This document shows, one piece after another, positions 2,228 to 4,873 of a stretch of DNA of 20,000 nucleotides. Position 1 is the first letter of the stretch. The number at the start of each line of letters is the position of its first letter. Source of the stretch: an uncultured virus (IMG/VR IMGVR_UViG_3300020577_001549). Lineage: Duplodnaviria > Heunggongvirae > Uroviricota > Caudoviricetes. Location of the stretch: the IMG/VR virus record IMGVR_UViG_3300020577_001549, one strand, 5' to 3'. The translations under genes and the position numbers were made by a program. The notes beneath the pieces were generated by a model. The model was not told the origin of the DNA. It made no database searches and saw nothing but the letters and a program-made list of their open reading frames with translations.

Positions 2228-2257
2228 AAAAAGGGCCCTTCGGGGCCCTTTTTCTTT
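2228..2257. terminator. Rho-independent terminator, probably bidirectional
   Basis: AAAAA-GGGCCC-TTCG-GGGCCC-TTTTTCTTT: perfect 6-bp GC stem with a C(UUCG)G tetraloop, a U-tract on the + strand and an A5 tract giving a U-tract on the - strand, ~20 nt after the capsid stop. Confidence 0.92.
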
Positions 2258-2393
2258 GGGCGCGGCGCAGCCCCCTATCTTCCCGGTATCGAAATCCAGC
2301 GGCACCAGATTCTGAATCCTCAGAAATAATTTGTAGGTCTCCATCCATTGTCGGAATGGAAAGCCAAAATGTTGGCGGCACGCCAGAAAAAAG

Positions 2394-2422
2394 TTGTGCC
2401 TACCTTGGCCCAATGATATAGT
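2394..2422 (+). promoter_or_regulatory. Putative sigma70-type promoter with extended -10
   Basis: -35 TTGTGC (2394-2399), 17-nt spacer, TG-n-TATAGT (TG 2414-2415, -10 at 2417-2422), and an upstream A-tract (2387-2392) as a possible UP element. It lies after the terminator, with the predicted start at ~2428-2430, where the structured RNA begins. Confidence 0.65.
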
Positions 2423-2427
2423 GGGCC

Positions 2428-2503
2428 ATCCGGGAATCCCGGTACGCCAAACTGACCCGGCAGACATCATGCTGATTGACGTACCAACAACTGCATGAAG
2501 GAA
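2428..2503 (+). ncRNA. Compact double-pseudoknotted RNA downstream of the gpT-like capsid gene; candidate Mu-gpT-DE-type motif
   Basis: Pairings seen: GGTACGCCAA 2441-2450 / TTGACGTACC 2476-2485 (9 of 10); CTG 2452-2454 / CAG 2461-2463; loop CCCGG 2456-2460 / CCGGG 2430-2434; TCATGC 2467-2472 / GCATGA 2493-2498. The location fits the Mu-gpT-DE (Mu-like gpT downstream element) motif as I recall it. No covariance search was run. Confidence 0.6.
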
Positions 2504-2509
2504 ATCATC

Positions 2510-2974
2510 ATGGGAATCGCTTCTCACCTCGGCCCTTGGCTCTTGGGCACCGTCAAAGACACCACCGGCACCGCTGCTGGCACCGTTCGCAACATGGGCG
2601 CAACCATCGTTGCCCAGACCTTCAGCTTGACCGCTGCACAGGTGGCCACCGGTAGCATCTCCGCAGGTTTCATTCCCGCGGGCGCACTGGTCACTTCTGT
2701 CCAGATTCTGACCACCACGTTGTTTGCTTCGGCCACTACGTTGAAGGTCACGATCGCTGGCGTCGATGTGAACACCGCCTCGACCATCACGGCAGCCGGC
2801 ACGATCGCAGTGTCTCCTGCAGCCACGTTCACCCCAACGCAAGCCAACGTCGGTTCCACCGATGCGGCCGTCACGTTCACGACCACTGGCTCGTCTGCTA
2901 CGGGCGCGGTCACAGTCATTGTTGCGTACATCATGCGCAACAGCGACGGCACCAGCACCCCAGCTTCTGCTTAA
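2510..2974 (+). CDS. Putative virion (head) structural protein, 154 aa
   Basis: The better start is ATG 2510 (MGIASHLGPWLLGTVK) with SD AAGGA at 2498-2502. Thr/Ala-rich beta protein ('IPAGALVTSVQI...F.....LKV') with capsid-like codon bias. Confidence 0.75.
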   Translation: MGIASHLGPWLLGTVKDTTGTAAGTVRNMGATIVAQTFSLTAAQVATGSISAGFIPAGALVTSVQILTTTLFASATTLKVTIAGVDVNTASTITAAGTIAVSPAATFTPTQANVGSTDAAVTFTTTGSSATGAVTVIVAYIMRNSDGTSTPASA

Positions 2975-3920: not shown

Positions 3921-4196
3921 ATGCTGGCCAGCCGTGGGATGGGGGCCATCTCCCCCAACAAAATGCCCAAAGGCAAGCGCACCGCTCGCCGGGATGACAC
4001 CGACTTCACGCAGTACGCTGAAGGCGGGGGCGTCAATGCGGCCGGTAACTACACCAAACCCGATCTGCGCAAGCGCATCGTGTCGCAGGTGAAGGCCGAC
4101 GCAACGCACGGCACCAAGGCTGGTCAGTGGTCGGCCCGCAAGGCACAGCTTGTGGCCAAGAAGTACAAGGCCGCTGGCGGCGGGTATCGGGATTGA
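3921..4196 (+). CDS. Basic phage protein, 91 aa; C-terminal part resembles the N-terminal half of DUF5872-like proteins
   Basis: Contains NYTKPDLRKRI...GQWSARKAQLVAKKYKAAGGGY, recalled as DUF5872-type. The N-terminal module MLASRGMGAI.P.KMP ends in YAEGG. Confidence 0.7.
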   Translation: MLASRGMGAISPNKMPKGKRTARRDDTDFTQYAEGGGVNAAGNYTKPDLRKRIVSQVKADATHGTKAGQWSARKAQLVAKKYKAAGGGYRD

Positions 4197-4197
4197 G

Positions 4198-4431
4198 ATG
4201 AAAGCCCCGCAGAAATCGCTCAAGGACTGGGGTGACCAGAAATGGCGCACCAAGTCTGGCAAGCCGTCAAGCAAGACGGGGGAGCGGTATTTGCCTGAAG
4301 CCGCCATAAAATCTCTGTCGCCGGACGAATACGCCGCGACAACCCGAGCCAAGCGAGCGGGCAAAGCGGCTGGCAAACAGTTCGTCAAACAGCCATCCAA
4401 AGTGGCAGCTAAAACAGCGAGGTATCGGTAA
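4198..4431 (+). CDS. Basic phage protein, 77 aa; resembles the C-terminal half of DUF5872-like proteins
   Basis: ATG at 4198, one base after the previous stop (TGA G ATG). Sequence QKSLKDW.DQKWRTKSGK....GERYLP..A...LS..EYAATTRAKR....GKQFVKQP. The stop overlaps the next ATG (TAATG). Confidence 0.72.
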   Translation: MKAPQKSLKDWGDQKWRTKSGKPSSKTGERYLPEAAIKSLSPDEYAATTRAKRAGKAAGKQFVKQPSKVAAKTARYR

Positions 4432-4685
4432 TGGCTAAATCACCTGCATGGCAGCGCAAAGAGGGCAAGTCCGAAAAAGGGGGCTTGAACGCGAAAGGCC
4501 GCGCCTCGTACAACAAAGCAAATCCGGGTAAACCCGGATTGAAGGCCCCCCAACCCGAAGGTGGCCCGCGCAAAGACTCCTTCTGTGCCCGCATGGAAGG
4601 TATGAAAGCCAAACTGACTGGCGAGAAAGCCAAAAAAGACCCAAACTCACGCATCAACAAATCGTTGAGAGCGTGGAAATGCTGA
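4431..4685 (+). CDS. Basic phage protein, DUF6321-like, 84 aa
   Basis: AWQRKEGKSEKGGLNAKGRASY...RKDSFCARM.G.......DPNSRINKSLRAWKC, recalled as DUF6321-type. Translationally coupled start. Confidence 0.72.
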   Translation: MAKSPAWQRKEGKSEKGGLNAKGRASYNKANPGKPGLKAPQPEGGPRKDSFCARMEGMKAKLTGEKAKKDPNSRINKSLRAWKC

Positions 4686-4696
4686 AGGACTGACCC

Positions 4697-4873
4697 ATGA
4701 ACCTCGAAACCGTACGCAAATGCGCTGACATGACCGCTCAAGTGCAGATGAACGCCTTTGGTCACGTCACCAAAGACGTGCAGGACCTGCTCGACGAGCT
4801 GAACACACCTGCGCCCGTGGCTGAAGAAGCCCCGGCTGCCAAACCCAAAGCCAAGGCGAAAGCCGCGGAGTAA
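4697..4873 (+). CDS. Small hypothetical protein, 58 aa (not in ORF track)
   Basis: SD AAGGA at 4685-4689, ATG 4697, TAA 4871-4873. Translation MNLETVRKCADMTAQVQMNAFGHVTKDVQDLLDELNTPAPVAEEAPAAKPKAKAKAAE fills the gap between neighbouring genes. Confidence 0.75.
   Translation: MNLETVRKCADMTAQVQMNAFGHVTKDVQDLLDELNTPAPVAEEAPAAKPKAKAKAAE

Follow-up and report, generated by a model that had tools for sequence, protein, structure and literature searches.

What occupies the spacer between the major capsid gene of a phage and the virion gene that follows it, and does it act on that gene? The question is raised by a DNA of 20,000 nucleotides (nt) from an uncultured virus of the Caudoviricetes (IMG/VR record IMGVR_UViG_3300020577_001549), in the following called the window, in which 301 nt separate a Mu gpT-like capsid gene from the ATG at position 2510. 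A preliminary description of this sequence had proposed that the spacer encodes an RNA with two pseudoknots directly in front of the ribosome-binding site. This element begins 222 nt past the capsid gene. The comparison with related loci shows that a doubly pseudoknotted, conserved + strand RNA exists here and that this leader RNA takes up the stretch from a conserved promoter to the Shine–Dalgarno (SD) sequence of one gene, which is predicted to encode a capsid cement protein. Judged by covariation the element is a new structured RNA family, real and well supported: its fold covaries strongly, its geometry is tightly fixed, it has no match in Rfam 15 and it is found in a large group of aquatic podophages.

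Fold and covariation of the leader RNA

All four pairings claimed in the preliminary description could be read directly from the sequence of the window; we call the helices A to D (Table 1). One of them has to be amended. The main stem, helix B, is present, yet only 9 of its 10 pairs are formed since C2447 faces A2479, a mismatch that had gone unmentioned. The strands follow each other in the order A B C A′ C′ D B′ D′, the primes marking the 3′ strands, and this order results in two interleaved pseudoknots of the H-type, A with C and B with D. The competing hairpin CCGGG-AAT-CCCGG at 2430–2442, also pointed out before, was confirmed in the sequence. Taken as a single sequence the fold is not beyond chance: the nested minimum free energy of 2428–2512 is −18.8 kcal/mol (z = −0.79), and 37 of 200 shuffled sequences are as stable.

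The relatives used for comparison are the best 80 of 600 from a capsid-protein search of IMG/VR (86–92% identity), and those which carry the leader RNA come from lakes, rivers and the sea. With positions 2400–2540 of the window as query, iterated nhmmer searches detected the element in 33, then in 60 and then in 68 of 82 loci, the conserved region starting at about 2429. Two covariance models were built, R1 from helices B and C only and R2 from helices A and D only. R1 gave 70 matches in 83 sources, one per locus and throughout on the + strand. All complete matches extend to the ATG of the gene that comes first 3′ of the Mu-gpT-like capsid gene.

For the analysis of covariation 64 distinct sequences were aligned with MAFFT, that is, blind to structure (alignment A1). 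The paired cells amount to 80.6%, compared with 62.1% after shuffling and 28.0–40.4% with slid partners, and changes on both sides are seen in 21 of the 24 pairs. The covariation score is 0.516 versus 0.209 and is reached by none of 500 shuffles. RNAalifold applied to A1 predicts helices B and C unaided, with compensatory changes in 11 of the 12 predicted pairs. Helix A, which is left out of R1, still pairs in 91.3% of the cells of the R1-fitted alignment and in 97.6% when it is modelled together with D. Conversely, in the alignment fitted to the A and D model the omitted helix C is paired in 100% and the omitted helix B in 85.3% of the cells, the latter with double changes in 10 of 10 pairs; changes on both sides are generally found in all ten pairs of helix B. 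The middle pair of helix C is UA in 42, AU in 16, CG in 6 and GC in 3 sequences. In fixed columns helix D scores only 65–69% because subgroups (ATGCAA/TTGCAT) pair in a register shifted by two columns. Searched for without an alignment, it is detected in 64 of 64 sequences with a median of 6 base pairs (bp) and 28 pair-sequence types (shuffle p<0.05 in 39/64). The same search recovers helix A in all 64 sequences, with 16 pair-sequence types such as CTGGG/CCCAG, CTAGG/CCTAG, CCAAG/CTTGG and CCGAG/CTCGG (shuffle p<0.05 in 63/64). In helices B and C 54 G·U cells stand against 15 A·C cells, an excess that fits an RNA transcribed from the + strand. The alternative hairpin of helix A is not family-wide; with strict Watson–Crick pairing and at least 4 bp it is present in 32 of 67 sequences, including changed pairs (CTGG/CCAG, CCGA/TCGG, CCAGG/CCTGG). 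The preliminary description had named conservation and covariation in homologous loci as a check. All four helices covary, both pseudoknots included, and the doubly pseudoknotted RNA that it had foreseen is real and conserved.

The linkers between the helices are strict in length. Helices B and C are separated by 1 nt in 63 of 64 sequences, the 5′ strand of C and A′ also by 1 nt (61/64), A′ and the 3′ strand of C by 0 nt (60/64) and C and the 3′ strand of B by 12 nt (54/64); from helix A to the ATG the distance is 75–87 nt. Five unpaired bases, A2451, A2464, C2465, G2474 and A2475, are 94–99% conserved and all lie where B, C and D meet. As A′ and the 3′ strand of C form one continuous strand, helices A and C would stack to an 8-bp helix crossed by a single base, and we infer that this stack has the classical H-type geometry.

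Promoter, Shine–Dalgarno sequence and the downstream gene

Of 67 distinct relatives, 64 have a −10-like hexamer (e.g., TATATT or TATAAA) that matches in at least 4 of 6 positions, 52 of them in 5 of 6; according to our arithmetic a match of 5/6 within 11 offsets is expected by chance in roughly 5% of random sequences. The hexamer ends 7–10 nt 5′ of helix A in 59/67. A −35 box with at least 4 of 6 matches is seen in 30/67, among them 18 with the exact TTGACA. From the fixed distance between the −10 box and helix A it follows that the RNA should begin the transcript. This agrees with the preliminary description, which had let the element start where the upstream promoter would initiate; the start is predicted from the promoter. 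The same description had placed the element as a 5′ leader of the downstream operon, with a terminator between it and the capsid gene, and this too was borne out by the sequence and by the relatives, most of which have a GC-rich hairpin with a T run 3′ of the capsid gene. A simple consensus scanner reported neither the promoter nor the capsid terminator, and both rest on sequence reading and conservation; we think that the terminator was overlooked because its A–T pairs consume the T run. The terminator is palindromic and could act on both strands.

In three RNA runs of two studies contigs set in about 10 nt within the element, and the promoter is not crossed by any of them. The contigs start at 2441 (X17), at about 2438 (X19) and, in a relative, 68 nt before its ATG (X20); X15, a run which is probably DNA, breaks there too, its contig starting at 2440. 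Since the upstream DNA varies between relatives, these contig ends may be assembly breaks. The RNA-run contigs are 85–95% alike and come from related phages. The missing cover at 2217–2404 carries no weight. They also cover the 3′ half of the capsid gene (1700–2190) and end before the terminator, which speaks for presence only.

Promoter and element move together and stay before the downstream gene, the capsid gene being 60–80 nt or ~900 nt away. In four loci (L008, L013, L014 and L025) mobile genes are inserted, and the element lies ~900 nt from the capsid gene and still beside the downstream gene.

The last helix had been described as ending at the first base of the SD, and in the window D′ indeed touches it. 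A purine-rich SD is present at the same place in the relatives. Counted on the alignment-free helix list, the SD starts 0–1 nt past D′ in 40 of 64 sequences, its GGAG/GAGG core lies inside D′ in 17 (5 partly, 12 wholly, e.g., CCTCA/TGAGG), and in the remaining 7 it follows 3–5 nt downstream of D′. Hence D′ adjoins or contains the SD in 57/64, and as this is so despite a complete change of the helix sequence between lineages, D′ is tied to the SD. Thus the stretch from the predicted transcription start to the SD of a single gene contains a conserved structure, one strand of which touches or includes the SD; this is the arrangement of cis-acting translational leaders with an SD-linked pseudoknot. 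Within D′ of the window there is an in-frame ATG at 2495 (2495–2509); in 9 of 67 relatives (L015, L013, L034, L079, L046, L014, L078, L006 and L027) ATGTAAGGA is found there, a start codon followed by an immediate stop and overlapping the SD.

The downstream gene starts at ATG 2510 and not at ATG 2495, as is supported by its N-terminus MGIASHLGPWLLGT, which aligns with the relatives from residue 1. Its product of 154 amino acids (aa) gave no match in Pfam, in PHROG or among PDB sequences. An AlphaFold model built from 19 relatives is of moderate confidence (predicted local distance difference test, pLDDT, 70.2; predicted template modelling score, pTM, 0.67). With this model the best Foldseek match is 7eel_H from the capsid unit of cyanophage Pam1 (E 1.1e-4, template modelling score 0.52/0.56; the role of the chain is taken from the context of the entry, not from its title), followed by 7dou_4, the trimeric KHP40 cement protein (E 3e-3), and by the capsid-entry chains 8h89_J (GP4) and 7dn2 (KHP30). 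In two GenBank phages, OL906435 and OR003939, the genes found at this position bear the annotations "minor capsid protein" and "cement protein". On the strength of these best matches the product is predicted to be a capsid cement protein with a fold like that of solved cement proteins. Across the loci the downstream proteins belong to at least five families of 83–240 aa which look unrelated and have only an N-terminal motif in common, M-x-x-(S/T)-x-F-x-G-P or MGFATHLGPWLLGT. The pattern looks as if leader and N-terminal anchor were fixed and the C-terminal domain exchanged as a module. One relative (L007) contains two more genes with this N-terminal motif and without a leader.

Table 1. Features at the capsid/cement gene junction of the window
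Feature	Position	Strand	Basis or remark
Major capsid gene, Mu gpT-like, 303 aa	1297..2208	+	Pfam Phage_capsid_4 4.5e-14, Mu-like_gpT 4.1e-10; PHROG 371 major head protein 1.3e-22
Intrinsic terminator after the capsid gene	2228..2257	+	11-bp GC-cored stem 2228–2238/2243–2253, loop TTCG, T-rich tail (sequence reading, folding)
C-terminal remnant of a GIY-YIG-like homing-endonuclease gene, ending in EWKAKMLAARQKKVVPTLAQ and the stop codon	about 2330/2354..2416	+	Translation; comparison with L013
Sigma70-type promoter	2394..2422	+	−35 TTGTGC 2394–2399, 17-nt spacer, −10 TATAGT 2417–2422; predicted start about 2428–2431
Helix A, 5′ strand CCGGG (pseudoknot 1)	2430..2434	+	5 bp with CCCGG 2456–2460
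Alternative partner of helix A, CCCGG	2438..2442	+	Local 5′ hairpin, excludes pseudoknot 1
Helix B, 5′ strand GGTACGCCAA	2441..2450	+	Pairs with 2476–2485
Unpaired conserved A between helices B and C	2451	+	A in 97% of 67 sequences
Hairpin C, CTG 2452–2454/CAG 2461–2463	2452..2463	+	6-nt loop carries helix A 3′ strand 2456–2460
Unpaired conserved AC 3′ of hairpin C	2464..2465	+	A 97%, C 96% (67 sequences)
Helix D, 5′ strand TCATGC (pseudoknot 2)	2467..2472	+	Pairs with 2493–2498
Unpaired conserved GA 5′ of helix B 3′ strand	2474..2475	+	G 94%, A 99% (67 sequences)
Helix B, 3′ strand TTGACGTACC	2476..2485	+	Pairs with 2441–2450
Helix D, 3′ strand GCATGA	2493..2498	+	Last base is the first base of AAGGA
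Shine–Dalgarno sequence AAGGA	2498..2502	+	7 nt before ATG 2510
Putative capsid cement (decoration) protein gene, 154 aa	2510..2974	+	Start at ATG 2510

Possible function and relation to known RNAs

Searches with Rfam 15 at the gathering score gave no match in the window and none in 20 relatives. In E-value mode there were weak matches to small RNA, microRNA and long non-coding RNA families and to a few cis-regulatory families (leaders, purD, PhotoRC-I), mostly at the terminator or in the spacer; none of them overlaps the element on its strand, and no ribozyme, riboswitch or exoribonuclease-resistant RNA (xrRNA) family of Rfam matches the element.

We tentatively propose, with a probability of about 0.45, that the ~70-nt RNA (2430–2498) is a cis-acting 5′ leader which controls the translation of the cement protein and protects the 5′ end as a side effect. 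Transcription would begin 1–3 nt before helix A, by which the 5′ end of the mRNA would become buried in the fold and shielded from 5′-end-dependent decay. Helix D would place a stable tertiary structure directly on the SD; in some lineages D′ is the SD itself. The folded state would limit the binding of the 30S subunit, and translation would be freed once D opens, or A, by which D should be buttressed. The junction bases are the likely contact of a trans-acting factor, a protein more likely than a metabolite, which would set the balance between the folded and the open state and would thereby tune the output of cement protein versus capsid protein. The local hairpin of helix A, available to about half of the family, may be a competing state or a folding intermediate.

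Several points weigh against such a control of translation. In the 40 of 64 sequences in which the SD lies beside and not inside helix D, the SD could stay accessible, and the helix could even aid ribosome binding; in a further 7 it is 3–5 nt away from D′. That the downstream proteins have only the N-terminal motif in common weakens a simple autoregulation by the product; possible partners that would be left are the conserved capsid protein or the common N-terminal segment. A phage needs many copies of its cement protein, which an enhancer or a stabiliser fits as well as a repressor. Finally, relatives without the element manage with short spacers of 9 nt (ct2G2228) or 51 nt (QDWS535).

To our knowledge phage structural genes have very few known cis-regulatory RNAs. 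The leader, with its design of terminator, promoter, 5′-terminal double pseudoknot and SD in this order, is a small, defined system in which it can be tested how accessory and major capsid protein are kept in proportion by a phage. A phage precedent is the pseudoknot in the leader of the T4 gene 32 mRNA, a single H-type pseudoknot that serves as autogenous translational operator. It is bound by the single-stranded DNA-binding product of its own gene, whereas the element has two interleaved pseudoknots and precedes a cement protein of variable family. In common they have that a pseudoknot in a phage 5′ leader lies upstream of the ribosome-binding site; the T4 pseudoknot sets the translation of the next gene and has no Rfam model, according to PMC10690425. 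The IMG/VR catalogue presented there (DNAVirus_N) comprises 8,495 covarying intergenic motifs, of which 879 are located at most 25 bp upstream of a gene whose domains are known. Coming from the same data source, our element may be one of its unnamed candidates. Three short strings of the element had no match in supplementary files 3–6 of PMC10690425, and the accessible main text describes no such motif. Nor did we find, by full-text search, a description of the element in the literature on Mu-gpT-DE, on candidate structured RNAs of phages or on phage HTVC023P.

It is also conceivable, though we regard it as rather unlikely, that the element is purely a knot at the 5′ end which stabilises the late mRNA against RNase E or the 5′–3′ RNase J without any regulation. 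The conserved distance from the −10 box, which places helix A 1–3 nt past the predicted start, would suit this, the strict linker lengths suggest a precise, compact fold, and the element is kept whatever protein family comes after. In flavivirus xrRNAs the 5′ end pairs into the interior of the closing helix, and a segment of this interior pairs downstream of the closing helix; the strand order A B C A′ C′ D B′ D′ as read in the window is the same. Flavivirus xrRNAs, however, are found in 3′ untranslated regions of eukaryotic viruses, contain a three-way junction and show no similarity to the element in sequence or model; no Rfam xrRNA family matches. Moreover, for 5′ protection a plain hairpin would be enough, and stabilisation does not need the tie between D′ and the SD, including the lineages in which D′ is the SD.

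Quite doubtful is a combination in which the ring-shaped double pseudoknot would be a new class of 5′ cap-like knot threading its own 5′ end as in xrRNAs and resisting the 5′-end-dependent decay by the host, with a conserved junction that binds and senses a component of phage assembly and opens or closes the SD-adjacent helix. If true, the synthesis of the decoration protein would be coupled to capsid assembly, and no RNA fold that blocks exoribonucleases or senses assembly would have been described in a bacteriophage before. The preliminary description had put forward, as candidate functions, a translational switch coupled to capsid assembly, a small ribozyme and a packaging-type RNA.

Riboswitches of the preQ1-II and SAM-II type are compact pseudoknots with their 3′ strand at or in the SD and with conserved junction bases. 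By analogy the junction of B, C and D could form a ligand pocket, and a small molecule would stabilise helix D over the SD. The compact size, the near-invariant junction bases, the fixed linkers and the pseudoknot strand at or in the SD are all reminiscent of this class. Against it stands that no riboswitch family of Rfam matches, that the controlled gene encodes a virion structural protein, where we see no metabolic logic and which suggests no ligand, and that the context is a single one in every genome; we therefore consider a riboswitch improbable. Very improbable is a put-like RNA that modifies RNA polymerase for processive antitermination at the head of the long late operon. The element does stand just past a strong terminator at the 5′ start of a long series of + strand open reading frames (ORFs), which extends from 2510 to beyond 20000, the end of the window, but an RNA acting on the polymerase is not expected to need a fixed abutment to SD and start codon, put RNAs are two stem–loops and not pseudoknots, and no Rfam match was obtained. 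A small self-cleaving ribozyme, as might be suspected from a pseudoknotted phage RNA of about 70 nt with conserved unpaired bases, has next to no chance, for no Rfam family matches, ribozyme families included, the strand order is unlike that of hepatitis delta virus-like and pistol ribozymes, and cleavage in a leader starting at +1 would be of no evident use.

The preliminary description had filed the element under Mu-gpT-DE, a motif for which we know of no function. As a statement of membership this has to be given up, as the element has no match to the Rfam covariance model, RF03012 (accession according to PMC7657543); as an analogy it stands, with a similar place and a leader overlapping the SD. 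RF03012 is absent among the 15 weak Rfam matches obtained in 2150–2600 with E up to 10, has no match at its gathering score (49 bits) in the window or in 20 relatives and none at the element in the records of L077, L054, L049 and L002. Its consensus, seen via a sub-threshold match in phage Pag-Yong1, has 53 positions, with an outer 4-bp helix (CCUG/CAGG) around a 5-bp hairpin. These are two nested helices and the Rfam model holds no pseudoknot, whereas the element has four helices and two pseudoknots and stands at the predicted +1; that it is a member of this family is thereby refuted. Both RNAs follow a Mu-gpT-like capsid gene and overlap the SD of the next gene with the last helix strand, and in RF03012 there are CUGAC and CUAGC strings that resemble the element's core. 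Even a diverged member is scarcely tenable in view of the nested fold and the failure of the model up to E 10. The only sub-threshold matches, in phages Pag-Yong1 and DSL-LC04, lie elsewhere in those genomes and far from the capsid gene: L083 1501–1554 on the − strand, which is OL906435.1 27393–27446 (24.9 bits), and OR003939.1 34582–34634, also on the − strand (16.2 bits). The former runs up to the ATG of a hypothetical gene (300 aa) that stands behind a gene with a VWA domain. The 3′ end of the RF03012 consensus reads CAGGAGAU..AUG, that is, ..CAGGAGAUuaACAUG. Because it ends with SD and AUG, Mu-gpT-DE, named a "downstream element", is recast as a leader of the next gene. With Mu-gpT-DE also being a leader, leaders behind the capsid gene may be a recurrent solution reached with several unrelated folds.

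Distribution and surroundings of the element

Exactly one copy of the element is present in each of five whole genomes, namely, three IMG/VR contigs rated 100% complete and the phages HTVC023P and DSL-LC04. A capsid-blind pattern for one sequence class occurs in at least 120 IMG/VR stretches; 80 of these were examined, and all 80 are model-positive. A capsid homologue (59–93% identity) is found in the flank of 70 of these loci, and the ORF with the motif follows in at least 74. A like pattern was run against 596 Gb of prokaryote genomes. Among the matches listed, mostly from GC-rich genomes, 78 of 80 loci are model-negative, which indicates that the covariance model is specific. The two model-positive loci are L244 1498–1584 (71.7 bits) and L239 1452–1542 (36.5 bits). 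The first lies on a 12-kb contig recorded for a Gammaproteobacteria strain, the second on one of 18 kb from a Kordiimonadaceae metagenome-assembled genome. Both contigs are probably phage and give weak hints to the host.

Isolates that carry the element are Pelagibacter phage HTVC023P, with 48.8 bits at a site before gp41, and phage DSL-LC04. Phage HTVC027P is doubtful (L086 3475–3553, before gp62, 14.2 bits, E 0.66): helix B and a D-like CCTAG/CTAGG overlapping the SD can be recognized without a clear helix A, and the locus may be a degenerate or remodelled form of the element. The isolates 023Pt_psg01 (9.9 bits, E 6.1), CRP-901, Alcaligenes phage QDWS535, ct2G2228, Caulobacter phage GB2A and Pag-Yong1 gave no match. 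Altogether 13 of the 83 sources are without an R1 match, and when L001, L007, L032, L035 and L041 were searched again with the filters off the best score was 11.4 bits (E 2.2). In Pag-Yong1 (L001) a GC-rich spacer of 104 nt is found instead, without a match. L007 has no leader; there the next gene (MAQTRFSGP..) and the end of an inserted GIY-YIG gene overlap. Most of the other unmatched sources have other ORFs after the capsid terminator, and the examined DNA may end before the next virion gene.

The window covers the structural module of a podophage-like genome with all genes on the + strand. Downstream of the 154-aa gene there are SU10-type adaptor genes, an endolysin gene and genes for large virion proteins (Pfam, PHROG). 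For the capsid protein a comparison with PDB sequences gave nothing significant. Two minus-strand ORFs, 1970–2842 (290 aa) and 2211–2381 (56 aa), have no Pfam family and are taken as spurious because they cross the terminator and both genes.

The spacer of the window also contains the remnant of a homing-endonuclease gene (Table 1), which is cut off by a stop 28 codons upstream and whose last codons overlap the −35 box of the leader promoter. At the same place L013 has an intact ORF of 258 aa (4056–4832) ending in VWKAKMLAARKKTVVPPTKP, with a sub-threshold GIY-YIG-like match (20.1 bits versus a cut-off of 27), and blastn aligns positions 2357–2520 of the window with L013. In the relatives, genes are inserted preferentially where the capsid gene and the cement gene adjoin, which makes this junction an insertion hotspot (L007 3962–4648, L013 4056–4832, L041/L042, L051, L062, L064 and L071), the inserts being a GIY-YIG endonuclease (Pfam 27.6 bits, L007) and other small ORFs; in L007 the insertion has replaced promoter and leader. 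Caulobacter phage GB2A carries an annotated homing endonuclease at the same junction (L092 2998–4548).

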